Shown here in pieces: positions 3,001 to 30,686 of a stretch of DNA of 39,371 nt. Under the pieces are notes generated by a model. The model was not told the origin of the DNA and did not search any database. It saw nothing but the letters and a program-made list of their open reading frames with translations. Each line of letters opens with the position of its first letter. The stretch's first letter is position 1. The stretch comes from Proteromonas lacertae. Lineage: Eukaryota. Where the stretch lies: the NCBI GenBank assembly GCA_002245135.1, contig NGBS01000891.1, positions 62,001 through 101,371 on the forward strand. The letters are read 5' to 3'. Position numbers and translations under genes: made by a program.

Positions 3001-6000
3001 CTTTGTTGGTATTAATATAAATATATATTGATGTTAAACTGGGAATTGTTATTAAATACTGAGGCGTACAAGAGAAATTTGAAGTTCCTTCAGTATTATA
3101 ATCATCCCATTCATCTTTAATATGAATATTAGTCCAATTGTTTATTTCATTAATCTCATATTCACTATCTGCTCTACACTTTAATACCATACATTGTACA
3201 GATTTACATCTATTTATATTATATAATTACTAATAGTATATATACGGTTCAAGTATTGGTAATAGAGTATAATAGCCAGGTGATAATGACAGTGTGATTG
3301 TGTCTATAGTAAAAAAATAAAATCTTAAGCATATAATACTTCCTTCTTTACCTGCAAATCTATTAATCATTTCATAATCTGTTGGTCGAAATATATGAGT
3401 ATTCTCATTCTCTACTTTATATATTTGAAATTCACTTATGTGTGATATTGTTTTACATTCTAACAACAATAAAGACTTTTCATCTTTATTGTCTTTACCT
3501 TTTGTCTTGGGTATTGATATATTCCACTGATTATCACATGTTGCATGATGTCTATAATATAATAAATTTTAGATATTTATACGGATCATGATTATGAAAT
3601 GTATTGACTATCTCTTTCCATTCATTAGATAACAACATCTTCGCTTCATTTAAATCTATTTTAGAATATTCTATTTCTTCATTTGTCCATATCATTATAT
3701 TATAGTTTTCTATTCTACATCCATCTTTTGCTATAAATACAAGTATATAATCACCTTTTTCTACATTCTTAGCTATTGAATAATTCGCTATACAAATAAT
3801 AGTTATGTTTAGATATACAGTATGATTTAGTAATTCTAGATTCAATATCTTCACCTATCATTGGAATATCACTATCCAAATCATATATATGAACTGAATA
3901 ACTATCATTATCTTCATCATTTACACATTTTATAAAGATATTTGTCTCTTTTAATACATCTATTCGATATTGGCATATTCTAGTATATCTATTTGTTGGT
4001 ATTATATTATCATAATCTATATCATCATTTATATTATATTTATATAGCGATTCTATTTCACTAAATGAAATCATATTAATATCTGTTGGTGATTGAATAC
4101 TAACATTAACTGGAGTGTTGTCTTTATTACTATTCCTTATATAAGGTATGAATACATAATTCCCTTTATCAAATTCATGTTCTATTACACTTCTCTCATA
4201 TTCACTATTTATAATCAATTCTTCATTATATTCACCATCACAAAATACTCTCTTTTCATCTTTTATTTTATACACTCTACCTCCAATTTTGGCTTTTTCA
4301 CAAGACAAATCAAAGAATATAACCTGATTCTTTGTTATTCTTAAAACAAATTGTCTTAAAGGATAAAAACAAAACTCAAACTCTTCATTTTCTTTCTTCC
4401 AATTATACTTTTCAATACATGTTTTTTCATATCTTTGCATTGATAAAAGTTTATAATTTAGAATCAAATTCTGGCAATATGTTTTTATTGTGAATTTACA
4501 TGTCTTAAATGAATTGGTTCGTAGATATATAATGACAATAAACTGAGTAGACTTTTCAATCTTTTTAAAGATAGATGTGATTCTTTGTAAATGAAATGTT
4601 CTTGATATATTATAATCTAATAGTCTTTTACATTTTTCATCTTCTACTTCTATTATATCAACCGAATATTCTCTTACTGATTCTTCTGGTCCTTCTGTAT
4701 GTTCTTCAATTTCAAATGCTAAATTGCTGTTTTTGTTCTTTGTATTATCACATTTTACACTAAATATATACTGTTCTCTAAAATAAGGTAATCTTGGTAT
4801 TAAGCCAGGTAATTCTATGTTCAAACTACCATTATATGGATATATTCGATTGTTATATCCTACTGTTAATTTCTCCATATCGGGTATGAATTCCTTTAGA
4901 TTTATCCATAACACTTCTACATTCTGATAGGCAAATTCTAATTCTGGTGAAAATGACATATACTAATAACATAAGATATATATATATATATAAGTAATAA
5001 GTAATATATATATATATATACTTCTCTAAATGTCGAATTATTCCATATTGGGTTATCACTTCCCCATCTTCCTGTTACACCATGAGAATTACCAATTAAT
5101 AACCAATAATCACCTTTATATTCTCTCATCTAATATATGAAATAGAATATATTGATCTATACACTAAGTACTGGAAAATTGTGATTAAAAACAATATTAT
5201 GATCTAATGATCCTTCTTCCTTTGTTGATATTGTCATAATTATATCACCATTATTATATAAATCACATAACATTGATGAGATTGATTTAAAGTTACTTAA
5301 TAAAGTATCTTCACGATATTCTCTTACTATCCAACCAGTGAAACTTGATAATGCATCTGTAGCATAATAACCTTTAATATCATAACCACCATAAATCTAT
5401 ATAGCAATAATATTTTAATGAAATTATACTTTTAAAGCAGCTTTCTCTATCAATGAAACCCACATTTCATCTAATATAACTGATTGCCCACTTACCAATG
5501 AAGTATGAGATCTTACTAACAGTTTATCATCAATTATAACACTTCTATAACAGCCATTCACATAGAATTTAATAATATATTTACCATAAGGATTATATAA
5601 TGGATTACCAAATTCATCTTTTGGATAAATCATATCTTTCAAAAATGTACTACCATATATACACATATGATTTGCACAACTTATAATAGCACTGATAATA
5701 GGACAATCTCCGATTTGATTCTATTGATTACATTATATATTATCATTATTATTATTATTTCTATACTTGTTTAACAGATGGTGCTAGAAAATCATGAACA
5801 ACTGATGGAACTGATGTATAAAACTCATGAGGTCTTAACCATCTCGAATGTTCTAGAATATTAGAATCCGTTAAATAATCATATTCTTCCTCATAAAATT
5901 CATGTCCACCTAACGTATACTGTTCTAATAAAACTTGTTTTAGTGAAAATGGTGCAAATGTTTCAGATCCTATGAATGATGATGAATCTAGAATTTCATC

Positions 6001-8169: not shown

Positions 8170-9914
8170 TTAAACTGTAGTTTTAAATTTATCACCAACA
8201 TATATTGCATTTTCAACATATGCTTCTTCTTTTCTAATAAATTCATTACAAAACAATAAATTTGTTGAACTTTCAATTCCACCAGTTGTTATCATATTAA
8301 ATCTATTTCCCATTGAATATTCTAAAGGGAATAAATCATTATATCCTCCTTCACTTACATCAAGTACCATTCCCCATCCTTCGTTTTTACATAATTTGGT
8401 GATGGTTATACCATCCCAAACAGTTGCTAAATCATGTAATCTAACTCTAACACAATTACAAGTCTGATTTTCCATTGCATTTGTTATATTTCCTAGTTTA
8501 CTAACAATCAAATCACCTCCAATAATCTGCCTTTCATTTCCATATGATTCAGTAAACGCTCTCCATAATTCAATATCAGCAGCAGCATAAGGATCTTCTA
8601 TTGATATAATCTGTGGATATTGATCTAATAATGTGGTATAATAACCTTGTAGCACTGTTCCAGGTACTTTCTATTTATAAATAATAATAATAATATTAAT
8701 ATATACATTTTCAACACCTCCTCCTTTCTTTCCTTTAGCAGCTGGTGGTGCTTTTGATGGACTTCCTTTTTTTCCTGCTGGTAATCCTTTTTCTATACAT
8801 GGAGGTAAAACATATCCTGCAGTAGAAGGATCTTCGCCTGGCTGAGCGTACTATTGAATATATATTGTAAAAATATGATTATATATATATATACTCTGTA
8901 TAGTTTTTCAGCTTCAAACTTTATTCCTATTTTTATTTTATCATTAAATTCATTCTTTTCAATCTGGTTAATTACAAATTTAATCAATTCTTCATCACTT
9001 ATAAAAGTTTCTGGGATATATAGACAATGTCCAACACTATAATTTGATACAAACTATTCATAAAATAGAAATATATAAGACAATACACTCTCACTATATT
9101 CTTCTTTTATAACCTTTGTTATTCTCATTTTCAATTCTGTTAATGCTTTTACGGCGTCTTTTACACTAGTAAATCCTATTGGAATTAATCTTATTTCTTG
9201 TATGATTAGATTGACACATCCATTTGGAGGATGTACAAACAACGTTGGTGATATGACTGGGAATATCATATTATCTATTGGACATTCACATAAATTTAAA
9301 ATATGTTGCTCTACAGGGATATGAAAACTTTTTGCACCAGCTTTACATACTGCTGTTGATACTGCTAATATTGAGTTTCCTCCGATTGTCTCTTTATTAT
9401 CACTAGGATCAGATAATCTTAATGTATTATCTATAGCTTCTTGGTCTGTTGCTGCTTTGTCTACTACCTGAGGTGCTAAATCATTGTTTATTCTACCAAT
9501 TGCAGAAGTGATTCCCTTTCCATCATATTCAAGTGGATTTTGATCTGTCAAATGAACTATACCATGCGGTTTACCATTATCAACAGTAGGGACAGTAGAA
9601 ATAAAATCTCCACATTCAGTAGTCAATGTCACTTCTAAAGTAGGATTTCCATCTCTATATCAATTAATATACAGAATATACAATCCATAAACTTGTCTAG
9701 CTGTACATCTTCTTATGCCTTTATGAAGTGCAGATTTATCTCTCAATAATTCAGACATATACAGATAAGGATCTTCAGGACGTACTTTTAATGTATCATT
9801 AATAAGTTCATTCATATTTTCTTCCATTTTATGATGAAGCATATATGAATGAATTTCTTCTAATCCATCTGAAGCAGGGATTTGGTTATCAGGAACATCA
9901 TCATCTGATTCCAT
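8170..9914 (-). CDS. ENO4: Enolase-4-like pseudo-enolase with N-terminal RIIa/Dpy-30-like docking domain
   Basis: ATG 9914. N-terminal MEENMNELINDTLKVRPEDPYLYMSELL is RIIa/Dpy-30-like. Enolase fold motifs: ARQV..GNPTLEV, YDGKGITSAI..IN..LAP, DQEAIDNTL, NKETIGGNSILAVSTAVCKAGA, IISIEDPY, QIIGGDL, YVGDKF. K/G/P-rich insert (PAGKKGSPSKAPPAAKGKKGGG, ~8710-8790). Four short introns join ORFs 9660-10004, 9054-9632, 8793-8987 and 8170-8655. Confidence 0.85.
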
Positions 9915-11217: not shown

Positions 11218-12546
11218 TTATGCCAATGGAACAAATCCATTATACTTCTGTATCTTCTGAGTACACATAAAATTATAAGTAATTTCAGCAATAGATTCAA
11301 CTAAATAAGTTCCATCACAACTGCCATGATATTTCATCATTCTTGATATAAAAGGGCATAATATACTACAATCAGTAAAACTAAGATTCTCTGTATTCTC
11401 ACAATGATAACAAATACTATCTTTATTACTACAATGATATAATTTCAACACTTCACTTCCAGCAGGATGTCTTGTTACAAAATCTGAAATGAAATATAAT
11501 TGTGGTTTATAAGATATATTACAATTATTGTTATTATTATTATCATGAAGAGGTAAACACCATATATCCATCGAACTTGAACTTGTGACTCTTGGATCCA
11601 TTATACTTGAATAATATGCAGTTGTACCACCAAAACTATGGCCTGTAATGTGAATGTTTGCCATATCAATTAAACCATTTAAAGGATGAAGAATTACACC
11701 ATCATTTATATCCTATTTAATAAATAAATAGATTAACATACTGACATTTCATCAATTGTTGCTGATATTTCTTGACTTCTTTGCTGTAATTTCTGTTTAA
11801 TAACATCTAACTTCCCATTCTTCACACTTTTATAATCTATATTATCATAATATATTTCTTCACCATTTGGTAGTTTTGTATAAGTACAAGAATGATCACA
11901 ATGCTCAAGACTAATGACTATTGTACCTCTACTACATAATTCTAAACAATATTTACTCTATTCGAATAAATTATAACATAAATACATAATTATCTGGTAA
12001 TCCATTAATTCCATGACTAAATATAACCAATGGATATGGTCCATTCGTCTTATCAACTGCACCTGGTGATACTCTTAACTTTAACTCTTGTATAAACAAC
12101 GTAAAGTACTTTGGCCACATAAATGTCTTGATATGAATTGGAATTACTTCTGTATGTGCATAATATTGGGTTAGCTTCTGTTCATCAACTTGAGTTGGGT
12201 AATATATACGACACATTACTTGATTTTGAGATCTATTAATACAGTAATATTCAATTCCAACTCTATATTTATTTTTTGCATTTGGCACTATTTTAACATC
12301 ATTCATTGGGAATATAAAATCCAGCACCAATGTGGCTAATATTCCAGCAAGCATTATCAAAAAGTCAAGAACAACGGAGGGTTGAAGAATAAAATAATCC
12401 ACAAAATGAATAAATGTTACAAAACATAGCGGAAAAACTTGAAATCTAAACCTTGAATAGTACCATACATTCAAATACACAACGAATAGGAATCCATTCA
12501 GAAAATCTAGAATTTAAGCTTATAATTATATACATATTTGGTACAT
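11218..12546 (-). CDS. Platelet-activating-factor acetylhydrolase-like alpha/beta hydrolase with N-terminal membrane segments
   Basis: Motifs RIYYPT, PYPLVIFSHGING, Y|SKYCLELCSRGTIVISLEHCDHS, GHSFGG (nucleophile), MDIW (acid), KPQLYFISD and ENLSFTD. Three short introns. ATG 12546 gives an in-frame spliced model; the upstream ATG at 12595 does not splice in frame with canonical sites, so the start is uncertain. Confidence 0.82.
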
Positions 12547-12779
12547 AATATACAGAGAGTAGTATAACAATTAATAACCCCTCTAGTTTCAACATAATTG
12601 AGAATTAAATAATTCTAGGCTTGATAATATGTTTGATGATGTTTTTCTATTTTCTCTTTAAATTCCATTAATAATTACATTTTTTATATAATAAACATAC
12701 CATCACACAAGTATCAATATAACAAAATAAAATACAAAATGAATAATAAAAATAATAGCTTTTCACAAATATAAACACT

Positions 12780-13507
12780 TTACTGACTTTGTTCTTGAAT
12801 TTTTAAGTTCAATTGCTTAACTGCATCTTCTAATCTTCCTACTTTCCCTGTTAATTGTTGATTTAGTTCTGTATCTATAAAGAATATAACTCTGATTCTT
12901 ACATTTCATTTCTTCATCTAAATACAACCTATTTTGAGCTAATATAGAATCTAAATCTTCAGACATTTGGAAAGTTATCTGACCATATTCTGCTGGTAGC
13001 ACAGTTTCAATTTTGGCCAAGCCTTTTTTAATTTGATCGATTAAAGTGGTACTTTCACAAACTTTTCTTTTGTATTCATCTTTTTCCTTTTGTACATCTA
13101 TAATTTGTTTTTGTAATCTATGCATTATAGCTTCTTCTTCATATTCTAGAGTATTCTGTAGATTTATCTTTTCTTTCTGTAGATCTTCCATTTTTCTTTG
13201 AAGGCTATTCGTCAGTTTTTCTTCTTCACTTTCTGATGCTAAAATAATATTTTCTTTTTCTTGACTCAAAGTTCTTAATCTTTCCATTAGCTTCAAACTA
13301 ATAGATTCTTCTTCTGCTTCAGATGCTAGCGTCTAGATATTTTAAATAAATAACAATATAAATACCATTTGTTGTATCTTATCACGATATTTTTCTATCT
13401 CTCTTTCTAGTTGTCTATTTCGCCTTCTTTCTTCTTCTAGTTCTTTCTAAGGATATCAGGTAAATAAAGAATACTTTTAACTGAGTGATTGTCTCTTCGT
13501 TGCTCAT
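12780..13507 (-). CDS. CCDC6: CCDC6-like (DUF2046) coiled-coil protein
   Basis: ATG 13507, three short introns. Repeated signature AEEESISLKLMERLRTLSQEKE / SEEEKLTNSLQRKMEDLQKEK / LEYEEEAIMHRLQKQI matches the CCDC6 EQEEEFI(S/T)N.L.KK repeats. The final exon ends QEQSQ* (TAA 12780-12782). Confidence 0.8.
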
Positions 13508-13706: not shown

Positions 13707-16700
13707 TTATTCACTAAACGAACATTCTGAACCAAACTTCAATGGTTCAATTTTTTCATCCATATCTTTCTTCTCTTCACTTGGTTTATGTTGAGATATT
13801 TGATCGAATTGAATCTGCTTTGCTACTTGGATCTGTGCTAAAGATGGAAGAGAATTTAAGGTATAATCATTATTTTTATATGACATTTTTCTACTCTTAG
13901 ATGTAGAAGGTCTTGAATTAGAATTACTACCATGTAAAACACTTCCATGAGATTGTCTTGGATTTGGAGATTTTGGCTTAAATGTATAATTAACATCTGA
14001 TTTATTTGTATGAATATCTTTATAACTAAATATTTTTACTGGAACAACTTGTGAAGAAGTTGCTTTATTAATTGCTGCTGCAACAGACGATCTTATTGAA
14101 AAACCAGTTGGAGATGGAGGTTGAGTTACTGTTTCTACTATTTTCTCCAAATTATCTAATACCATATTATTATTATCTTGTGATGAAGTTGTTTCACCAG
14201 AATAATTATTCTGATAGAAATCATAAAACTTTGGAATGTATATTATCACTATTTCTAACAACACTCCTGTCAATATCACTGCCATTCTAAACCACACAAT
14301 ACCAGTTTTATTATCTTTAAACACAGTAAAATCAAAAGGAACTGATATTGCTCCTAATAATAATATTGTTCCTATAGATAATGATAAAGCAATGGATTGA
14401 TTATATTCTCTTTGAATATCTCTAGATTCCCATGATATAATAACTCCATACAACAACAAGACAACAATTATTAGAATATCAACAATTCTATAATAATAAA
14501 ATCAATTTAAAAATATACTCAAAAGGTATGTTTAAGTCACATTCATACAAATATTTATGTATTGTAATATCATTTGTTGTTACATCAGTTATAATTACTC
14601 TAGTAGGAACTGCCAATTCCCATATAATATTGAATATAATATGAAGACCGCAAATCAGAAAGATAATTTGCATTAAGAATTTATTTGTAATTGTTTTCTA
14701 TATAGATTATATTATAGAAGATATATAATATACCTTTTTCAATGCTGGATTTCTAAACAATGCTTTTAATCTCCAACATTTTGTAATTAATACAGCATAC
14801 AATAACACAATTCCATTGCCAATACCCCAAGTTCTAAATCTACAAATCCAAACATTTGTAGGAACTGAAATAATAAAGAATGTAGAATAAGTTATTATCA
14901 ACAAAGCAACTACACACAGTATCAAGAAATTCAACGATGCTCTTCTTATACTTGCTCTACTTCTATTCTTTATCAAGAACAACAAAACGCCAAATAATAT
15001 TATTGTCAAAAGAACTGAACAGATAATAGTGAATATTGTCAATGCAACTGAGTATGTAAATGTTTCATAGAATGGTCCAAAATAACACACTTTATTCAGG
15101 TTAATTGGCTCAGAAAAAGATGAATTAGATGAAATAGGATAAATCAGTTGAGTCATACCTGAATCTGACATTCTGTACAAGAAAGTTGATCTAGCTAAAT
15201 AGTTATTAGTTCGTAATATTGCTTTGCCTGATGGTAATATAGCTGTATGATTCTGAATTGTCATTAACAAATGCTTAGTAGTTATTGCTGATGTTGACGA
15301 AACAATCGAATTCAATTGACTTATCATTGTTATTACATATAATATTGAACTATATACTGATTCTATTCCTTCATTCAAATACTGTTTTCCAATTAATCTC
15401 ATTACATCGTATTGAAATCCAATTGAATCTTTTGTTGATATATCTGACATATAGGAACTTACAATATAGAAGTTAGACATCTTTGTTCTTACAGCATCTG
15501 GAATATTATATACATCAATGTTATAAAAAACTTGATGGAAGAAATAATTATTAAAACTCATTGGTAAATATATTCTTATAAAATCTTTTAATTCATAACT
15601 AGCAAGAGTGTTTAAGATAAATAATCGTTTTTGTAAATATTTATTCAATATTCTTGTTATATTGTAAGATGACATTATCTTATTAGATGGATTATACAAT
15701 AATGTCATTACTGGGATATTAACACTATAATATTCAGCTAATATTGTTCTGATAGTATGTTCAGATTCTAATCCATATTCTGTATTTGAACATATTATGA
15801 AAACATTATCATAATCCGATTCTTTATGATAATCAAACAAAAATTTTGTTTTCTGATAAACAGAACTTGACATTGTTATAATATGATCATCACAAGTATT
15901 ATCATTACTTGGACCAGTATAAAACAATAACTTCTTCCATTTATTTAAATAATTCAACATAGTATCTCTACAACCTGATGATAAACATCCAATAAAACAA
16001 AATAAAGACTTATCATTCTCAATCTTACTTTGAACAGTATAATCATTCAATCTATCCAATAAATAAATTGGCGTTTTGATGTAGTAGTCTGGATATTCAT
16101 ATCTATTATTCAATCTGTTAAAATATGATTCAGCAAAAAGTGTTAACAATCTTGGAGATCCAGCATTGTCATTTTCAGATGAATATATCAATGGAACTGT
16201 TATATACTTCCTTGCTCCTCTATTTGAAACATCACACAACTCACTTTTTAAATCATCCACAATGTAATAATCAGAAGCAGAATAGTGATCTGGTATTAAA
16301 ATATCTGGAGATACTGTTCTAGGTATAAATGATCCATCAGTATCAACTTCAACTAAATATAGGTATCTTTCAACATATAAATTCTCATCCAAATTAATAT
16401 AGCCTCCGTATGAATATAATGAAATACCACTTTCTTCTTTATAAAATTGATATTGATAATCAGAATTATTAGAATACTGTAATGCATATGTAAGTAATTG
16501 TGCAACAATATAAGAAGTATCTGCTAATGTACTAATTGATACTGAATTACCAAACACATTATGAACAGTATTCTCTATTTCTTCAGTTTTAGAAGTTAAA
16601 TGAGAATATTTATCTGAAGAAAGTGAATTGAATGATGGAGTTACAACTAATAACGGACTTTTGCCATTGTACCTATTACGTTTCATTGTTGTTTCATCTA

Positions 16701-19700
16701 GATAATTTGCATATACTGTTATATTCTCATTATCTAAATAGTGATTATCTTCCAAAGCTTTAATTATCTTCTCTTCACAATTTATAAATGCAAAATATAT
16801 AATACATTTGTTAGTTGTACATTTCGCATTTATTGTCTGGAAATACCTCAATACTTCATTTTCCATATCTTTTATATTTTCACAATTAGGTATTTGAATC
16901 AGATTATCAACATTATATCCATAAGAATACATTGCATTAATCATATAATTAGAAAACTCAACTGAATATTGAGCTTCATTGCTAACCATATAAATTGGTC
17001 CAGCAAATGTTGCAGTATCCAATATAAACATTTTCTTTAACAAATTAAATGATGATCCAATTGAAATAACGTTCTTTGAGCATATAAAACCAGATGATAA
17101 GGAGAAATAATATAATATCACATCAGTTCGATTTGTTTCATGAACTAAAGAAATAAATGTATTCTTTTCTTCTAATTTCAATCCACCTATAATAATTTTT
17201 ATATCCTTTCTATTAATTAATATCTCTCTTAACACTTCTTCATATTTTTCATCATTAGATTCATAGTCAAACAAAATTGGATGTAAATATGGATATGATG
17301 GGTCATTATCCAAATAATACTGCATAAATCCATTCATTATTTCAAATAACATTCTTCCTTTTGATCCAAATTCACCAGTAAATGTAATAATCAATGCAAC
17401 AGATAGCATAGGAGTATGAAACAATACATCACCCTTTTCATGATCAATAGACCAATCACAATAGACATTACCTAATTCATATTTAACTCCTGCATAATAT
17501 GGACTTATTAACATATTATATACTCCATGAATTACATTAGCGGTTATTCCATCTCTGCTTTGATATAAGAATAGGTCATGTGTCAAGTGATGATTTGGAT
17601 TAAAATGGATATGAAATTCACTATCTTCATTATAAAAAGGATAAAACAATGTTGTATATATTTCATTTCTTAAAATATCTACATTATAAACAACTATATT
17701 CTCCAATGCTCTGATAAATATATTCACTGAACCATATAAATATAACATATCAGCTGTTATTGATATTGAATAAGGAATTCTATTCTTAATTTTTTCTTCA
17801 AATAGTTTGAAAACTAGAGCAGATTCATTGTAACTTCTTACAAAGGAAATGTTCTCTATTGAATGATTTAATGGTTTGTTTGAATTATCCACTCTCATAT
17901 CAACATAAAACACCATAAACTTTGGGTTTTGGTTTTTCATTGTTACTGCATATTCTTGTAGATCTACCACATCAATATCTGATAGAATGACTAATTTATT
18001 TTCATTACTGTATTTCCTTGCATCATTTTCAGCAAATTTGGAGTAAGAATCATTTTTACCACAAGCAACATAATCAATATCTATAAATCTCATTCTTAAT
18101 TCATTAAAAAATGATTTTAATGATAAATAATCTGTCTGTGTATATAATATATATTTTGCTGTACTTGTATCAGATTGAAGATCAAAAAATTGAGTGAAGA
18201 AACGGAATGATAGAGGAGCATAAACGCCAGCATAAAATATATTATGATTACAACTTTCACCTTCTGATGGAGATATATAAAACATAAGTTTATTACTGTC
18301 TTCAACCATTTTTATTACATTGATAGAAGAATCTTCCAAAGATGACCAATCTCCTGAGAAGAAAACAGCATATGTATTATTGTATTTAATTACTCTTTCC
18401 AAAGCAGATGGATCTTTCAGTGTCAATATATTGAATTCTATACTTCTTAAACGACGGAATGCATTTGTGTATTCTATGGATTATATAATATTCAAAAATA
18501 TATACTTTCTTCATTTATTTCGCTAATAGTCATATCCAAAATATCAACCATATTCTGAGTATTATTGTATATCAAAACAACATTTATAATTTCATATTTA
18601 TGTTTTACCATATAATTACCATTATAATAACATTTATAACCTGGATCATAATATGAATTGAAGAATTCAGGAAAAATCAATTCATTATATGATGTTTTAA
18701 TTGTGTATTCATAATTATCTTTCATGTATGCTATTTGAAATATCCAATATGCAGCTGTATTGTTTTTATAATATACACCATCAGTAACATTGAAGGAATT
18801 CTCAGCAGACATTCTAATTAGATCACTTGGAGATGGTAAAGTATTTGTTTCTTCATAAAAAGATTGTAAATGATTAAGAAACATTGATATTGTACCATAT
18901 GCAATTATCTCTCTTAATGATAATATTGTTATACCTCCATACTGAGTTAAAGCTTCATACATTTTTGATGATGTATCATTCATCATTTTATGAGCTAGAA
19001 AATAAAATTTTGATATTTTGATATTTATCTTTTCAGTATAATCATAAAATGGCGAAAAAACTGGAAAACTATCAAAATTCCAATCATTTGTATTTAATAC
19101 ATTCACAATTTCTACAAAATAATCAACTGAACATAAAAATATCAATACTCTTCTTTCTGTGTTTGGATATAAATATTTATCTATATATGAATAACCAAAA
19201 GAATCTTCCAGTTCTGTAACATTATAATTAAACGTAGTATTTAAGTTTGCTACTAATATTTCCATATATATTTTAAATGGATTATAATTGGAGTAGAATA
19301 TATGGAATCTATTGAAATGTTGATTTGCAAAGAAGTTGATTGGAGTTGTAAATATTTGATTTGATAATCCACCACCTATAATTGTATTATTCAAACATAC
19401 TTGACCTTGAAAATGACCTTGATAATACAATATTTGATCATCTGCTAAAAATTGTGATAATTCATACAAAGGCATTGATGAATTACCACCAAATATATAC
19501 TTCACTTTATTATTCATGTTTAGAGAATTCCTTATACAAGATATATACTCAGAATTACAATCATAAACATGATACATTATTCGAATATTCGATTTTGTAT
19601 GTTCATTAAAATAATCAAAAAAGGACATTTCTGCTATAGATACATAATAGCCATAATAACCTCTAACACCAGAAAAAGAGTGTAATAATAACACTTCCAC

Positions 19701-22700
19701 AACCATATAATTAGATATAAGTTGAGGCATTTCACTATATTGAAGATTCATTTGAAATGAATATGCTGATTGATAAACTATTTTGCTGGTATTTTTAATT
19801 CTATCTGCATGTATAACATATATTATTTGAGTCATAAAATTCATACTATTCATTCTCTGTGGACCAGTTGCTGTTTCTACTGTTATAGTTTTCATTGTTT
19901 TCTTCACTGTCTTTTGATCAAATGAATTTGATGATTTAACACTTTCTGTAAAGAATAAAACAGAATTAAATATGTTATTTGAATATTGTGATATTTGCTT
20001 TTCTGTAGTATTGAAGTATCTATTCATATAAGATACTAAGTTATTAAAAACTGGAGTATTTAAAAATGAGTTTGATATTTCAAATGAATAGAAATTACCA
20101 TGAAATTTAAAGTTTATTTGGTCAATTAATTCAGGAATAAAGTGACCAAAATGAATAATATCAAAATCCATTCTTACATTATTCAAACTACTCAAATAAT
20201 TGTATAAGTAATTATCATCTAATAAAGACAATATAGTTCCATGATATTCTGTAAAATGATTGGTCATTATTGTATTAATATCATCCATAATACTATCAGG
20301 ATGTACTTCAATCATTGCTATTACTACGTAGCCATATTCCTCTAACTGTTTTCTAAACATTCTTCCAGTATCTAACGCATATTCTTCATCTGTCACTAAT
20401 ATATAAATAGGATTGTATGAATGATGACTAATCCATCTACTACAAAATGGAATTAATGGTTTCATATACACATCAAATGTAAATTGATTATCTGATACTA
20501 CTGTTGTATCTTCAAACAATGGAACTATATTCATCGTAATTATTCCATCAATATCTGGAAATCTGCCTGATTTACAAGTAAAACCAAACACAAATTCTAT
20601 ATTATTATCATACAACTGCTTTTTAATACTATCCCATTCATCTTCTGATTCTTCTGAACTGATTGGTATTAATATTGGATTGATATATGTATCATTTACC
20701 AATGTTCCTTTATTATATTCCTTAATCGGATATAAAAACATAGAAATCATTAAAGATTGGTAAACATTTGAACTACTGTTACAATAGATATATCCAACTT
20801 CATATACAGCCGAGTGATTTTCATAACATCCATCTAATTCATTCTCTATTAAATTACTTTCATTATATGGCCCTTTTAATTCAGCTACAGTAACATATTC
20901 ACTATCTGCTGTTTTTCTTATAATGTAATTACCATATGATAAGACTCTATTCTTTAATAATATACTATCTCCATGAGGAAAGCTGAATGTTAATTCTTTT
21001 GTTAAATATGGTATAATATCTATGGGGTTATATGATTGAGCTACATCTGATAACTGATTAAGAAGTGAAAATGCTGAATATAATAACTCATACATAGACA
21101 AATCTAATTCTGTTCTTGATAATGATGAATATATCCATTTTTTAAATTCATCATTCTCTTTACTATCTATATCATCAGAATATGATGATATTGAATATAA
21201 ATTAGGTAAAGTATTCATATATCTAAGATTATATCTTGAAGTTAATAAAACTACATATCGACTTGACATATCGTATATCTCATTTTTCATTTCTATTAAT
21301 TCTACTTCTTCTTTTGATAAAGCTATAATTATAATACCTCCTTGTGGCATATAGTTTAATACATGAGTCAAAATTGCATAAGTAAAATATAATGGTATTC
21401 TTTTTACATCTTTCATGTCCAATATTGAATTAACTGATACTCCAATATAAGGTAAATTCTTTATACAATACTCTTTTACTCCTTCACTTACAGATATATT
21501 GCTATTATACACTACTATTACTTCATTATAACCTCTTGTATTGAAATAACTAAGAGCAGGATCTATAATTTGGTATATGTTTGCTCCAACTGTAATACTA
21601 TTAAAATATTATTATATAATTATTATACACATTATCATAACAGACTCTTTCCATACGTGTCTCTATTTTCCACAATAACATATGTGATGACATTAACAAA
21701 TTACCCAATTTCTCATTCATATCATATTCATAATTAAACACAAATATATGTGATACATTTCTATCAATCAAATCATCAAAAATATCTTCTAGATTTACAT
21801 CACCTTCAAATACTACAATACCCATTCCATTATTCTTATAATTAAATGTTTTATAACTATTAAAATTAATCATTAGTATTGACTGATAAAATATCATATA
21901 TTCTAATGATGGATATGGTTGAGTGTATCTTTGAACTGCTACATTATATCTATCAATTCTTACATAACTTCTATCACTTGAACAATCACAAGTTTTTGAT
22001 TCTGAAGGTAAATGAAGTTGATGAAAAGCCATATCATCCAGTATAATTTGTTCTATTTTACCATTCACATATATACTCAAATAGAAGTTCTTCGTAACGA
22101 AATTGTTTCTTGAAAAGTATGCTTCTCCATCAGCAAATACATCGAATTTGGATGTATATATGTAGGAATACATTTGTTTAAAATCAAATGTAGATAATCT
22201 AGATACAGTAATCCTTAAAAACAATATTGAATTATAAAAGTTGTTTAATGTAATAACTTCTGATATTGTCAAATTACTATATTTTATACCCATTTCATCT
22301 AAATATATCTTAAATTCAGAATCAGGTATATCATCATCAAAATATGGAAATGGACCTAAGAAGACGAAATTTTCATATAAATCTGGATATTGATGGAAAT
22401 ATTCAAACTTATAATCATTCATTGTAGTAATATAATATTTTGGTGGAAGCATATTCTTGTTCTTCATTACTTTCAAAAAACTTAACAACTCATCTGCATT
22501 AAAATATGTATAAATTAAACCACCATCTGGCATTTTACTAAGTATATAATCAGCTACATCTTCAGCAGTATTTTCATTACAACATTCCATTTCTCTATCA
22601 TCAATATGATCTTCTTGAATTACTTTTTTGAAATCTTTTGATAGTGAAGCAGCTTTATTCCAAAACCTATTTTTAATTATATATATTCATATATTGCTAT

Positions 22701-25525
22701 ACTTATCTTTATGATGTAATATTGTAAAAACATCACCAAATAACAGTTTTGTTTTCATGAACACTATTGGTCCATATGTTGAAGCATAATTACCAAAATA
22801 CAGCACTTGAGCTGAACAAGTAAAATCATATACATTAAATGTAACAAATATTGGAATATTATAAGTTTTTGATAATGGAATTATTGTTTCTATTTGATTA
22901 CGACTATTTAATAAAAATGAAAATAATAAAATAATACTCTTCAGTAGTATATATTGTAATGACATTATGATTCTTCAAAAAATCTTCAACTACATCATAT
23001 AATTCTTTATAATCATTGGAATAATCTTGTGATATTGCATATGGTTGAAGTAAACATGAATTAATTCCATGATATAATGAAACATAGTATACCATTGATG
23101 ATAAGTATTCTAAATACAATTTATATTTTTCACGAGGAAAAATGATTAATGTAAAACATAAACTGTATAATGATAAAATACATTCTATAGAATAATAACA
23201 ATAAAATAATTATATACGTTCTTTAGAATAGTGATATTGCCATTTAATACTATCAATTATACTTGGATAAAACTCTGTATTAAGAATAACAGTTTTACCT
23301 CCATAAACAATATTATTTACTTCAATCTTATTCATTTTTAATACATTAATATTACTGGATATATAACTATTAATGTTGTATAACATAGTTCCTGTTATTC
23401 CAACAATACTTTGATGATATAACAAAATAAACAATGATTCAAGATTATAAACGCCAACATCTTCTAATACTTTACCAATCATATCAGAAATGTAATAACT
23501 TAACACAAAATTGTTATACACTTCCATTCCTTGAAAAAATCTATCAGTCATTAGCTTTTCAAAATTATAATCTGTATATCTTGAAGCTTCTTTAAAATAA
23601 TATCCAAATACATAATGTCCATCTCTTTCATCAGGTGTTAAATACTCTACAGCCATACTATATTCTAATGTAGAAGAGAAAACTATGAACTTTTTATTAG
23701 AATTTAATGGATATAATGCTCTTAGAAATTCTATTGCTTTGAGTTGACTTGTTACTAATAAAATATTACCACCATCAGTATATTCACTTATTATATTTCT
23801 AACAACATCTTCATTTACTTCTTCAACAACATATTCACCTCTATAACTGAAATTATTGTTCCTTGCATATATTTTTGCATTTTTCAATGACTCTCTACCA
23901 TACAATGACTTATCTGATATAATAATTGGATTTCTAAATAAATTTTCATACAACATACTATCTAATAGAGTAAATAAAGTATAACCTGCAAATAGTAAGT
24001 ATTTACTGCCTTTACCACCTTCTTGAGGTGATAAATGAATACCCAATCTCTGGTAACTTTCAAATAGTGTTATTGCTTTATCTCTAGCTTCAGCTTCTGT
24101 ATCAAAATATACAAAATCACATTTGTATTTATCTAATAATAGTCTCAATTGTATTAGAAACTCATCATAATCGTTATAGGTTAAAGAATAATAAAACAAT
24201 CTGATATTACGATTCTTTAGAAATAAATTCATATTTGTCTGATATAAACTATATTGAATACCTTCTCTTAAATAGGTTGAATAGGTACTGTAATTATCAT
24301 ATACATCAAATAACAAACCAATTCTTATAACATTCGATTCTACTACAATCGTTGGGTTATTAAAAGATGTTGTATATAATGTTTGTGTTAAAGGATAATC
24401 AGTTGGCTGAACTTTAGGATCTATTGTTTCAATTTCACGAAATGTTGTTCTATTATTAGTCTTATCCAACTCTGTAATTGCAATCACTTTATACACATAT
24501 AACGACTCTAGTATTGGTATTGAACCATAATCATTTTCATATGATAAACCCAACAATATCTCTTTTACTATGGGTAAATTGAATATATATAATGAAGGAT
24601 AACTATTATAGACTTCATTCAACAGATAATGTAAATAGAATAATGATAATGAAATATCGTCTATTATAACATCAGGTAAATTATCTGATAAATCTTTTAT
24701 CATTTTATCATTACCAATCATAGGAGATACACAATATATATTGTTTAAATCAGGATTTTTAAAATAATATAAATCTCTTGTATCACAATTTCCAATATTA
24801 TAAATATTCCACTTACCTAAATTGCCCAAATCAATTACTTTGTTTATTAACTCAATATTTGAATTACTCAATTCCAATAAATTCAAAATTACATTATAAA
24901 CTCTTCTTAATGGTGGTGGATCTGTTATTGATTCAACATTTTTCAATTTATTCTGATAATCGGTTGATAATAATTCATCTGAATTAACAACTTCATATTC
25001 TATATTATACTGGTTTAATTGAGGTTCAAGGAACTTTGTATATATATATTTAGTCTTATCATCTAACCATATGTGAAATATTTTGTACACTAAACAAAAC
25101 GGCGCGATACAGGTCATATATACTGTATTAGGCTGACTTGTATAAAATAGATTTGGATAGAACATTGAGGTACGACGAGGAAATGACACAAAATAAGCAC
25201 TTTCTTTTGACATAAAATTTATTAATTCTTCAGGAATTGCTGCAAACTGAATTATTATCACAAAATCAATTCGAATTGGGTTGTTTAGGTAATTATGCAA
25301 ATCTGACAAATCAGTTTCATTGTTATACACAAAAGGATCAACCAAATAATAACTTAAATTGTTTGGATGATCCAATTTATTGAATACATCATACATTTCA
25401 TTTTTTCTTATTTCTATGTATTTTTCACCTTCTTCTCCTATAGTAGGTATAATGATCTCACCTATTTTTAATTCTTCTAGTGATTCAACGAAATATATAA
25501 CACATAATAATATCAAAAACTTCAT
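13707..25525 (-). CDS. Giant class C (GABA-B-like) G-protein-coupled receptor, ~3,861 aa: signal peptide, nine tandem UrtA/AmiC-like periplasmic-binding (Venus flytrap) domains, 7TM domain, Ser-rich cytoplasmic tail
   Basis: Signal peptide MKFLILLCVIYFVES. Seven GT..AG introns (23185-23217, 22904-22937, 22667-22702, 21598-21628, 18474-18505, 14698-14733, 14488-14518; 233 nt in total) join all ORFs from 25525 to 13707 into one 11,586-nt frame. The 7TM region has class C hallmarks: KNRSRASIRRASLNFLIL, ICRFRTW..GIVLLYAVLITKCWRLKALFRN, YECD, LLYGVIISWESRDIQREYNQS..SLSI, IYIPKF. Confidence 0.9.
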
Positions 25526-26084: not shown

Positions 26085-29000
26085 TTAATATACCTTATCT
26101 CTGATCTTTTCAGATATAAATCTAAGCTTACCAGATTTAGTTACATCATTTTCATCAGTTTCATAGATAAAAACATTTTGATATACTGTTTTTGATAGAG
26201 ATGATTTATATCTACCTTTCGTAATTTCTATTAAATCTTCTCTTTTCACTAACTCTATTTTATTTTGAATTGTGTTATTATCATTTGATTCATTATTACC
26301 AATAATACCTCCATTATATGTATAGTATTTACTATATTGTTTTATTAATTCTTTATATTCGTTTTCATTAAAAGTTACTTCATCTTTAATAGAATTATAA
26401 TTAGTAAATATATTACTTAGACTTTTTGGATCTAAACTTTTCAATAAGACAACTTCGCTTACTTCTTCTTTTGTAAATAGTGGTATGTACATTATCAAAG
26501 GGAATCTTTTGATTTGAAATGTTTTATACTTATCACCATATGCATTATCTATAACTATTATCACTTTAGCATCAGGATAATCATCTTCACCAATAACTTC
26601 TCCATCAGAAACTAGAACATATGGTTGCTTTGGTAAATAAAGATTAATATACTTCCCGTTATAATAAACATTTATAGAATTTTTAATAATTTTATTTATT
26701 ATAACTTCAGCTAATACTGATTTACCTATTCTACTATGACCAAGTATTAAATAATTTCTTTGATAATCATAAACAAAATTATCTTTTGAAATAATATCCC
26801 ACATATCTTTAAAACATTTTCTCATAACAAAAATACGACTACCTACATATATATCAAAATCTTTTACTATTAGAGGTTGATCTGTTGTTGGCGTTGGTGT
26901 TGTTGGTGGTGGTACAGGAAATGGTAATGGAGGAGTAAATGCATCTCTAGTTGGAACAGATAGAGCGTCAACCTTGAAGTGTCTATTACATCTTTTTACT
27001 GCTTCATTTTGTATTACACAGTATTTAAAATAACCTTCTTTCTTCTCACTGTATTCTCTTATTGATTCTTGAATTTTTTCATTTTGTTTCTTTTTCATCT
27101 CCTCATTTTTTTCATTATTATCTTTATCTTCATTATTAATCTTTAACTCTTCTTCACCATCTAATAATACTTTTATAAATACTCCATTCATTATTAAATC
27201 AAAGTAATTTTCTTCATTTAATATATAGTAAACAAAATACGATGAATCATTAGGACTATAAACATACACTTCTTTCTTAGAATCTATTTCGAAATTTGGA
27301 TCATTTAAAAGAACAGCTTTAGCAGTTTCAGCTGTTGTTTCAAGGAAGCTATATGATATATTAGTATTATCATAAAACTCAATCTCTTTTTTACTTAATT
27401 TATATGCTATTTTCTGTTTTAATACCATTCTTTTCACAAACTCATCATCATTATCTTTAATTGATGAATAATAATCATCGATCTGTTTATATTCATCTGC
27501 ATCTCTAGGTGGATAGAATTTACATACTATATATTTTTCTACATCATCAGAAATGAACTTTAAATGGTCTTTTGGTTGTAATATACATTCTTTTAAATCA
27601 TTATCCCATGTTAATTGTAAATCATATTTTAATATAACATTGGATAAATCATTATATGACAAATTACTTCTGTTCATATATTTCTCTATAAACTTGCTAT
27701 AACCAGTTGTTCCTGCTACACTTTCTATCAACTGCTTGTAATATTCCCAATAATCTCTATCTTTATAATTCTTTCTATACAAATAATGGTAATATATTTG
27801 ACGAGGAATATTTCCATACTTTTTACATATTCTTTTAAAATCATTACTACCATCATCAGAAACACTACCATTACTACTACCATTTCTACTATCAACATCA
27901 ATACCAATACATTTTACAAACCATTCTTCAATTTCACCAAAAGATAATGATTCAAAATATAATTCTTTACGAGAAGCTTCGTAATTACTATTGTTACTAT
28001 GATCAGGTGAACTAATTGAAATGATTTTGTTGCTTTTATGGAAAACTTCATTTAAAGTATCAACTATTATTATAGAATCTCTTATTTCATTCAATTTAAT
28101 TTGCATAATGTGTATTTTAAAAATAACACCATCTCTCATTACATATATTTTCCTTTTATCTTCATCTCCATATTTTTTCCCTTTTATTATGTATATATCT
28201 TTGAACTTTCCTTCATTTCTTCTCCATACATTATCATCCATATGATAAATCAATCCTTTTTCTATCAAATCATCATAATTTTTATAATCTTCTTTTGTGA
28301 ATTCAATCACTTTCAGTTCATTTATGAACTGTTCATAATTATCATTTTTCTTTTCATTTATCTTTCTTTTCATTTCATACAATTTTATTTTTTTTGAATT
28401 CCATATTTCATACATCTCAACATAATCAATTCCTTTCATTATTCTTAATGCTAATAGATATGCTTCTACAAGTACATCAATTGAAATATCACATTTATAC
28501 AGTAATTATCATATTCATTAAACATATCCATATCAATTAATTCTGAAATATTATAGTTTTCATAATTATCACTGATTTTATCTATAGCTTTTTCAACATA
28601 CTCCAAATACTTTTCTTTATCTTCATCTATATTATTATTTGTAAGTGAAATACTTTCATTGAAATAAGTGATTGTATATATTCCATTAGTTCTGTTATAA
28701 CTACCATTTAAAGAAGCAATACAGCTCTTATTTTCAATGATATATTTAAACATTTCATAATTCATTTTAATGTCTCTTTTATACTGATCAATCAATTTAT
28801 TATTATCTTCCAAAATTTGTTCAAGTGTTTTTTCTTCTTTTATCTGCAATTGACTTTTAATACTTTCTATTTCCTTCTTTAATTCTTCTTTTTGTAAATA
28901 CATCATTACATTTTCATTCAATGGATAATATAAGAAATTATTCCTTATGAAGTACAATAACACATATATAAATGATGTTTTTCCAATACCTGGTTGACCA

Positions 29001-30686
29001 GTTACTACTATATTAGTTATCTGTACTGATAAACATTTACAAATATAATTAAACATCTCATAATAGCATTTTCTGATGTATATTGCATTATTTGGAAATT
29101 GATATAATGGTGTTGAGGTTGAAAACACTAAATATTTCTTGCTTTCATCACTTTGATCTACTCTCAAACTATTCACTACTTCCACAAAACTATCTGGTGA
29201 ATCAAGTAAGTCTGGATTCTCATGAAAGTTATTCAATATCATTATCAATTCATATATACTTCCACTCTTATATACGTATTCTTCTTCGATTTCTATTAAT
29301 TTGAATGTAGATTTTATAAAATCCTTTATACTGACAATATCGTAACTTATGTTTGTTTTTAATAGATTTGATAAATAATCAATTACATAATATTTCTTAT
29401 AATTATAAATACCATAAATTGTATTTGGCACTTTTACTTCATTTATTACATCATTACCAATTCTAACATTCATTCCATTTATAACAACTTTATCACCATC
29501 AACATCTACATTACAATTCTGTAATTCGCTATTGTCATATATTTCTTGATACTCTTTTTCTTTATAATATTCTATCCATTTCACTAAACCATTTTCATCA
29601 CCAATACTAATATATGGATAAATTGAAGTAGGTAAGTTTCCTGATATTTGTCTTTTTTCACCATTTCCTTGTCTTATGTACAATATCTTTTTATTCATAT
29701 CATATATCACTTCATATATATTTCCTACTTTACCACTAATACTTGATATTGGTGTTGATCTATTGTTTTCAATCTTCAGAGACGAACCATGTAATAATTT
29801 GATGTATGGATATATCTCATTTGATGTATCTTGATTTGTACAATAGCCAAAACTAATACCTTTACTACCAATATTCAATAGTTGATAATAGAAATGATAA
29901 ATCCCATCACTCATTTCTTTATTTATGATGTATTCATTTAAACTATTATCTTTGAATATTATATCACATACAACATATTCAATTTTATCATCAGGTTTTA
30001 CATAATAGTTATATAAGTCATCTTCTTCTATTTTTTTTATTGTATATACATATTTATTATTTTTAATATTCATCTCTGCTTGTGTAAGTTTATATCTTTG
30101 TATCATGAATGGTGGAACATACCAACTATCATTATCACGGCCAATCACATTCACTACCTTTACATGTTATTATACATGGACTAACTATTGGTGGTAAATC
30201 TTTCAATATATGTCTTTTTATTCCATTTCCATATCTAATAGACATTGTTTTTCTATTCATATCATATATTAATTCATATTCAACACCTTCTTCGGCTTTA
30301 ATATCTTGTGGTGGTGGTTCTAGTTTCTTACCATTATTATACACCTCAACTGAATCAGTTTTTAACTTAATATAACCACACTTTTCTTCAAAATATGTTT
30401 TATAATAATACCCAAAACATATATAATCACTCAATCTCACAATTATAACGGGATAATAATAAACTCCTTCACTCATTGGACGATTATATATTACTATTTC
30501 TTCACTATCAACACGCTTTAATCTTTTTTGTATGTTCGGATCTTCTTCTAATCTCCTCTTGATAGCTGCATCATCAGATCCATATCCACTTAAACTATAA
30601 ATAATTTTACCTAAAAAGTTAAAATTTTATATAGCAATACCTTCATAATTTCTTTTTACAGGAGAACTAATCATCAAATCACTCAT
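26085..30686 (-). pseudogene. Crinkler/RHS-like gene: two SPRY-like domains + two tandem CR-type P-loop NTPase modules (degenerate REase-like segment between); two frame breaks and an apparently truncated 3' end
   Basis: ATG 30686 and a ~30-nt intron lead in frame into ORF 30135-30476. Module 1: IYIRKCYYEMF, VTGQPGIGKTSF (28976-28999), IIIVD, ISSPD, YGNIPRQI, KFISDDV. Module 2: FVMRKCFKDMW, LILGHSRIGKS (26718-26741), IVID, MYIPLFTKEEV, NGGII, RFISEKI. Frame breaks near 30135-30175 and 28450-28500 could be frameshifts or atypical introns. Confidence 0.65.

Follow-up and report, generated by a model that had tools for sequence, protein, structure and literature searches.

Characterised G-protein-coupled receptors (GPCRs) of class C carry one ligand-binding clamp on each chain, and current understanding of how they are activated builds on that geometry. 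In this study we analysed a stretch of 39,371 nucleotides (nt) from Proteromonas lacertae (assembly GCA_002245135.1, contig NGBS01000891.1, positions 62,001 to 101,371 of the forward strand; hereafter the window), which contains a predicted receptor gene that would place nine clamps in tandem on a single class C seven-transmembrane (7TM) domain. The GABA-B receptor (GABA-B2; PDB 7c7q, 6uo8) is like the predicted product in having a class C 7TM and a type I clamp joined to the first transmembrane helix (TM1) without a nine-cysteine domain, but it differs in having one ANF-type clamp per chain instead of nine clamps of the UrtA type. UrtA of the cyanobacterial type, the binding protein of the urea ABC transporter (TIGR03407; PDB 7s6e, 7s6f, 8hic), and Pseudomonas AmiC (1pea) share with the units their fold, family, cysteine pair and C-D-W tail, and with the less diverged relatives of the receptor the full ligand pocket, although UrtA is a single-domain transporter subunit. 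Tandem flytraps are also found in trypanosome receptor adenylate cyclases and in Bordetella BvgS, which, compared by description, carry two such domains and an enzyme output rather than nine and a 7TM. To our knowledge there is no characterised urea-sensing GPCR.

Fusion of class C 7TM domains to bacterial-type binding proteins is not in itself new. The accessible text of three papers describes class C GPCRs of fungi and amoebozoans whose binding domains are of non-ANF types, namely BMP, OpuAC, SBP_bac_1 and LysR_substrate, and already proposes repeated independent fusions of this kind (PMC3251606, PMC5168858, PMC3971589), while that of PMC12716839 also includes class C receptors with bacterial-type binding domains. 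Unlike the receptor in the window, however, these proteins are given no UrtA/AmiC-type domain or tandem array in the accessible text, and their ectodomains reach at most about 1,600-1,667 amino acids (aa), compared with 3,435 aa here. PMC2670285 makes no mention of tandem, AmiC or urea, and PMC12965686, in its accessible part, describes a single flytrap with a glycosylphosphatidylinositol anchor. No description of a UrtA-array class C receptor was found in the literature searched, which did not cover subscription journals (the P. lacertae genome paper among them) or the domain-architecture supplements of PMC3971589, PMC5168858 and PMC12716839, which could list such proteins. Apparently, an old class C subfamily defined by UrtA-derived arrays has gone undescribed.

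Predicted gene and domain layout

The receptor region consists of five long minus-strand open reading frames (ORFs) separated by short gaps. Ten candidate GTA..TAG introns were considered, and seven of them yield a single frame of exactly 3,861 aa, running from an ATG at 25525 to a TAA at 13707 with a coding sequence of 11,586 nt (Table 1), so that the single spliced frame proposed in a preliminary description of this DNA is borne out. All seven introns are of the form GTAT..TAG with lengths of 31-36 nt, and their inner GC content is 6.3%, against 26.1% in the coding sequence. At every junction the chosen GT-AG pair has the lowest GC among the one to seven options that preserve the frame, the frame meets a stop no more than 11 codons from the junction if any one intron is kept, and no further intron-like low-GC GTAT..TAG window is left within the spliced coding sequence. 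Candidate introns of similar style are found throughout the window on both strands. The matches of the exon pieces to a unit profile (see below) continue in order across introns 2, 3, 4 and 5: the pieces of unit 3 match profile columns 25-70, 79-119 and 172-344, and the part of unit 4 in exon 4, which alone gives no in-register match, is followed by exon 5 picking up at column 109. Introns 3, 6 and 7 coincide with points where single-ORF fragments of relatives end. These in-order matches, together with the breaks in the relatives, argue for real introns and a single gene. Of the seven junctions, that of intron 1 has the least protection, and an mRNA joining all eight exons is a prediction.

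Table 1. Features of the predicted receptor gene (positions in the window)
Feature	Position	Strand	Remarks
Whole receptor gene	13707..25525	-	8 exons, 7 predicted introns, 3,861 aa
Predicted signal peptide	25481..25525	-	aa 1-15; by hydropathy; unit 1 begins immediately after
Unit 1	24332..25480	-	aa 16-398; most diverged; 18 bits, hhalign 84%, fold model failed
Unit 2	23161..24331	-	aa 399-777; 75 bits; Pfam Peripla_BP_5/6
Intron 1	23185..23217	-	33 nt; sole junction near a unit boundary (C-terminal end of unit 2)
Unit 3	21952..23160	-	aa 778-1157; exons 2, 3 and 4; 76 bits
Intron 2	22904..22937	-	34 nt
Intron 3	22667..22702	-	36 nt; profile column 142; P0016 and P0030 ORFs stop at about the same column
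Unit 4	20811..21951	-	aa 1158-1527; 68 bits; interrupted by intron 4
Intron 4	21598..21628	-	31 nt; splits unit 4 at profile column 108
Unit 5	19707..20810	-	aa 1528-1895; 73 bits; TIGR03407 E 0.0017
Unit 6	18597..19706	-	aa 1896-2265; 84 bits; 3/8 urea-pocket residues
Unit 7	17410..18596	-	aa 2266-2650; 66 bits; 4/8 pocket residues, 1/4 hydrogen-bonding; interrupted by intron 5
Intron 5	18474..18505	-	32 nt; splits unit 7 at profile column 33
Unit 8	16207..17409	-	aa 2651-3051; 107 bits; predicted UrtA/AmiC fold
Unit 9	15091..16206	-	aa 3052-3423; membrane-proximal; 153 bits; CxxxxC in the former W-T-S pocket loop
Class C 7TM	14226..15054	-	aa ~3436-3689; PF00003; interrupted by introns 6 and 7
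Intron 6	14698..14733	-	36 nt; P0001 and P0014 ORFs end at the same residue
Intron 7	14488..14518	-	31 nt; P0003, P0004 and P0005 ORFs end at the same place
Cytoplasmic tail and stop codon	13707..14225	-	Ser/Asn-rich, ~172 aa

The profile used for the units has 371 columns and was built from relatives, leaving aside the window protein and its 84% orthologue P0001. Searched with this profile, the ectodomain gives exactly nine non-overlapping matches of 18-153 bits, in order across the introns, whereas the best score among one reversed and 50 shuffled ectodomains is 3.3 bits; the nine tandem units of about 370-400 aa first noted from the sequence are thus confirmed, with lengths of 368-401 aa (typically ~375 aa) when the starts given at that time are used. 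The hhalign probabilities are 98.3-99.7% for units 2-9 and below 2% for reversed units. Compared directly, the units show little similarity to one another (12% identity on average; best z 7.7, with unit 1 linked to none), and Pfam alone detects only five of the nine exon-contained unit pieces, short of the roughly nine Pfam hits that had been expected. A type I periplasmic-binding fold, which the preliminary description assigned to all units, holds for units 8 and 9 by structure model and is supported for units 2-7 by the profile (66-84 bits, hhalign 98.3-99.4%); the support is weak for unit 1, where the profile and hhalign values in Table 1 are accompanied by an Atlas assignment from language-model features to Peripla_BP_6 clusters (0.95, 137/256 shared features). 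A signal-like start followed directly by unit 1 is the N-terminal arrangement in the relatives P0094 and P0095 and in the chytrid proteins as well.

It is well recognized that class C receptors have as hallmarks a cysteine pair linking TM3 and extracellular loop 2 (ECL2), a K..R motif ending TM3 and an xPK motif in TM7. In the predicted protein C3506 and C3595, which would form the TM3-ECL2 pair, as well as KCWR and IPKF, align with the relatives, and KCWR aligns with KTWR of GABA-B2. PF00003 (7tm_3) matches the exon 6 ORF above the cut-off (E 4.9e-10) and the exon 8 ORF below it (E 1.4e-6), the best PDB sequence match of the 7TM is GABA-B2 (E 1.8e-4), and the 7TM aligns to relatives along its whole length, including the junctions of introns 6 and 7. 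Hydropathy gives six windows over the threshold, spanning five or six helices, with the polar TM3 falling below it. No Pfam match to the nine-cysteine domain NCD3G (PF07562) is present in the window protein, the last cysteine of unit 9 lies about 10 residues from TM1, and no coiled-coil family is matched in the tail by Pfam. By its 7tm_3 match and its TM3-ECL2, TM3 and TM7 motifs, the predicted receptor is a class C GPCR, with a GABA-B-like 7TM directly behind the units and no nine-cysteine domain, as had been described. It falls outside the known subfamilies: mGluR, CaSR and T1R are defined by one ANF domain with NCD3G and the GABA-B subfamily by a single ANF-type flytrap, while the window protein has nine units of the UrtA type and no PF07562.

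UrtA-type units and the urea pocket in relatives

The units belong to the urea/amide-binding UrtA/AmiC family and not to the ANF flytraps of mGluR and GABA-B; Pfam, TIGR03407, Foldseek and VIA all favour the former. The best families for the window units are Peripla_BP_5 and TIGR03407, with ANF reaching only E 1.1e-5, on unit 9. TIGR03407 scores 17-28 bits on four of the nine unit pieces and gives no match on the other five, its cut-off of 492.75 not being reached. In a structure model of units 8-9 (predicted local distance difference test, pLDDT, 82.3; predicted template modelling score, pTM, 0.85) the top ten Foldseek rows are all UrtA or AmiC and the top two VIA rows are UrtA/AmiC structures. 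By VIA, unit 8 aligns to the urea-binding protein 8tg1 with Z 38.0 (root-mean-square deviation, rmsd, 2.8; 364 aligned) and to AmiC with Z 36.4, and unit 9 aligns to 4m88 with Z 31.0 (rmsd 2.8, 342 aligned), whereas the flytraps of mGluR and GABA-B score lower, at Z about 27-30 (about 27-28 for GABA-B).

A comparison with bacteria, covering the best 80 of at least 586 confirmed prokaryotic stretches, shows that all 80 loci are single-domain UrtA genes carrying the urea pocket; by their titles, 77 are from cyanobacteria and three from uncultured bacteria. Identity to these loci is about 47-58% for intact eukaryotic units and 15-21% for window units, and P0015, a relative of the window protein, matches Synechococcus UrtA with E 4.5e-115. 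The identity of the intact units to the 80 loci points to a cyanobacterial-type UrtA as the source of the units. Both tail cysteines are present in 80/80 loci and a C-D-W-type tail in 76/80. The cysteine-containing segment noted earlier between the units is the C-terminal tail of UrtA itself rather than a linker. We infer a disulfide between the two tail cysteines.

With units 8-9 and TM1-3 as the query, a full HMMER search found 46 proteins, and many of the 26 that were scanned for domains carry several Peripla_BP_5 domains together with 7tm_3. A word-index search over 2,723 candidates yielded no long relative of exon 6, and two metagenome scans gave no locus (65 and 8 pattern matches, 0 confirmed). 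Three relatives have nine units and 7tm_3 in one ORF, namely P0015 (3,745 aa, N-terminally cut), P0094 (4,080 aa, with a signal-like start) and P0095 (3,909 aa, likewise with a signal-like start); the layout is thus a trait of a family rather than of this gene alone. The search for relatives with other repeat numbers, which had been recommended, did find some: in chytrids, seven proteins, drawn from six named species, combine two units with 7tm_3. The examined AT-rich relatives are pieces of two to six units, mostly beginning or ending within a unit, and P0012 may be a true three-unit form. In P0094 a helical-looking insertion of roughly 90-140 aa (aa ~3010-3150) splits unit 8 and leaves its pocket intact; its ten profile matches thus correspond to nine units, and the extra row was left out of counts and tree. 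Intact UrtA units are found on other proteins as well. In P0121 (JGI) a UrtA unit with 8/8 pocket residues is joined to a protein kinase domain, and P0096 (EukProt, Pfiesteria piscicida) has, twice in succession before a membrane region without a listed 7tm_3, a UrtA-type unit, a degenerate unit and Cys-rich repeats, that is, an intact-plus-degenerate unit pair on another type of receptor.

According to the accessible text of PMC10392092, the urea pocket of UrtA has eight conserved residues (W120, S122, Y141, Q144, E146, Y190, N246 and S274), of which four hydrogen-bond urea. Window units 1-9 keep 0, 1, 1, 0, 0, 3, 4, 1 and 2 of the eight, respectively, with at most two of the four hydrogen-bonding ones, and the other AT-rich relatives keep 0-3. 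The full pocket (8/8) is found in eight of nine units of P0094, seven of nine of P0095 and five of nine of P0015, whose cut first unit retains all six pocket residues present. In each of these three proteins the last, membrane-proximal unit has 1/8. The chytrid proteins follow the same pattern: their first unit has 8/8 in four of the seven proteins and 6, 6 and 4 in the others, and their second unit has 0-2 in all seven. With the pocket missing in the window protein and present in its less diverged kin, the former is unlikely to bind urea in the manner of UrtA, and the nine-unit relatives with intact pockets are likely urea sensors.

Age of the array and competing explanations

In the AT-rich proteins the units cluster by position counted from the membrane. 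The last units of this group are the most alike (20.8% identity, against 14.6% across positions), and all 11 have CxxxxC in the former pocket loop. Window units 7-9 are 68-81% identical to those of the orthologue P0001, and window units map weakly on three of four AT-rich relatives (p 0.011-0.017). Among P0015, P0094 and P0095, units at the same position resemble each other more than expected by chance (p <=0.0008). Given this partial correspondence of positions, the window protein and the intact relatives may plausibly descend from a single nine-unit ancestor. A tree of the 7TM, based on 22 of 35 rows after short rows, near-duplicates and one long branch were left out, places the window protein within the AT-rich group (94/98), adjoining P0015 and P0095 (91/87). 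A recent concertina duplication was also considered and rejected, as units within a protein are 14.4% alike and those between proteins 14.4 versus 14.6%. Supplemental Table S5 of PMC12129017, whose main text is, in its accessible part, silent on GPCRs, lists for Proteromonas lacertae (GC 27%) 116 class C 7TM, 182 PBP-I and 7 G-alpha entries, compared with 2 class C entries in Cafeteria and no class C or G-alpha entries in eight Blastocystis strains. These counts show that an expansion of class C alongside G proteins exists in an AT-rich gut stramenopile. They also make Blastocystis, which a GC of about 25% and introns of 30-45 nt had brought to mind, an unlikely source of the window.

We give about even chances to the reading that the window protein is a chemoreceptor for small solutes other than urea, in which nine UrtA-related clamps, only some of them binding, would relay through unit 9 to a G protein. 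Its ancestor was most likely a multivalent receptor for urea or short amides, with binding copies on a non-binding base. Such an array may have begun with an early fusion of a cyanobacterial-type UrtA onto a class C 7TM, after which the UrtA copy would have duplicated, the membrane-adjacent copy losing its pocket to become the base and the outer copy multiplying (one in chytrids, eight in the nine-unit forms) into a multivalent sensor. In the AT-rich lineage the array would then have diverged position by position while the family expanded, each cleft being re-tuned or killed. Mechanistically, the conserved cysteine pair may staple the tail of each unit back and so hold adjacent units at a fixed packing angle; when a clamp closes, this packing or a dimer contact would shift, and the 7TM would be moved by unit 9, which joins TM1 almost directly. 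The pTM of 0.85 for units 8-9, from one model, suggests a fixed packing of this pair as a possible relay route. The weakest step is how closure of a distal unit could reach the membrane. More tentatively, and with some doubt about so broad a claim, we propose an undescribed eukaryotic family of urea receptors, class C GPCRs in which a captured cyanobacterial-type UrtA, present in as many as eight binding copies, sits on a base that does not bind, nine units being a recurring number; in an AT-rich, probably gut-dwelling lineage, each unit of the array would have been re-tuned to yield a large repertoire of multi-ligand chemoreceptors, the present gene being one of them.

Several observations weigh against the chemoreceptor reading. 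The model of units 1-2 is poor (pLDDT 40.2, pTM 0.32, unit 1 below 50), as are the alignments over unit 1. The match of units 8-9 to UrtA is partly by construction, since the alignment behind the model held UrtA-like rows; the window sequence by itself gives weak matches, though to the same UrtA/AmiC family. Single pocket residues of the window units may be misplaced, because the alignments stand at 13-21% identity. The TM6 motif reads YNQS, compared with F/YNES in most relatives. As for a single origin, all UrtA-array 7TMs fall on one side of a branch supported by just 75/61, window units do not correspond one-to-one with those of P0015, P0094 or P0095 (p 0.054, 0.83 and 0.29), and once degenerate units are removed the positional match among these three holds in two of three pairs (p 0.009 and 0.001), the exception being P0015/P0094 (p 0.32).

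The rival explanations differ in how many of the nine clefts are thought to work. If most or all of them are dead, the ectodomain would be a stalk or scaffold, a long glycosylated rod touching surfaces, polymers or cells, or holding a single active unit at its tip or base. The absence of a complete hydrogen-bonding set from every window unit, the barely recognisable unit 1, the 33 N-glycosylation sequons of the ectodomain and the CxxxxC that replaces the pocket loop of unit 9 are what such a rod would lead one to expect; however, loss of the urea residues is not equal to loss of all binding, as type I clamps take many ligands, and the paralogues have kept position-specific unit sequences, with units 7-9 staying close to the orthologue. 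We consider this account unlikely, though still a serious competitor to the chemoreceptor. At the other extreme, and as the preliminary description put forward first, most of the nine units could bind different small molecules, which the receptor would sum or gate. Low mutual identity of the units, pocket columns occupied by different residues in each of them and a position-specific divergence common to paralogues are compatible with this, but both the ligands and the route from the distal units to the 7TM are hypothetical, and the less diverged relatives repeat one pocket type rather than many. A true multiplexer is in our view improbable, and multiplexed sensing could be conceived solely for diverged proteins of the window type. 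The avidity antenna, an option raised in the preliminary description, is in keeping with the one urea-type pocket that is mostly repeated in the relatives.

The region could also encode several genes or shorter products; exon 1, for instance, could give a secreted protein of two units, next to a shorter receptor encoded separately. Intron 1 would allow it, being in frame, holding a stop and lying at a unit boundary, such that its retention ends the frame at aa 771; moreover, many AT-rich relatives are recorded merely as pieces of two to six units, and the joining of the exons is predicted from sequence. We nevertheless regard this as very improbable. The exons lie just 31-36 nt apart, introns 2-5 fall inside units across which the profile continues, and ahead of TM1 there is no second signal-like or transmembrane stretch, apart from one weak peak in unit 6. 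The pieces from relatives begin or end within a unit, several of them at intron positions, and three relatives keep nine units in one ORF.

A recurring array of nine units raises the question of how a ligand bound at a distance from the membrane could make itself felt there, and whether the number of copies governs sensitivity or cooperativity. Among orphan receptors, the relatives form a rare family with a specific and inexpensive ligand prediction, urea or a short amide, and the culturable chytrids with the two-unit form make this prediction directly testable. The family would also offer a traceable case in which a bacterial transporter subunit became the sensor of a GPCR and later lost its pocket during family expansion.

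Neighbouring genes

Directly downstream of the receptor gene, at 11218-13365 on the minus strand, is a DUF2046 gene followed by a gene like PAF-acetylhydrolase II, and beyond it a spliced enolase-like gene at 8170-9914 (-; Enolase_N E 5e-27, Enolase_C E 3e-26), whose N-terminal piece is weakly Dpy-30-like (E 0.16) and whose layout we take to resemble that of flagellar enolase-4, as would suit a flagellate. ORFs at 2-4962 (-) contain two Calpain_III matches (E 3.5e-7 and 1.2e-6) and then coiled-coil-like regions. A search of Rfam gave no match. On the other side, 26085-30626 (-) holds three long ORFs, one after another in different frames, with P-loop motifs and weak AAA matches. They overlap where the frame changes and could be parts of a single gene that is broken or spliced; they are reminiscent of P-loop proteins of the RHS/Crinkler type. 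The segment 31962-36727 (+) encodes an IQ-motif protein (PF00612 E 7.9e-14), followed by a spliced gene whose product has a signal-like N-terminus, a weak match to Laminin_G_3 (E 0.14) and a late hydrophobic segment.

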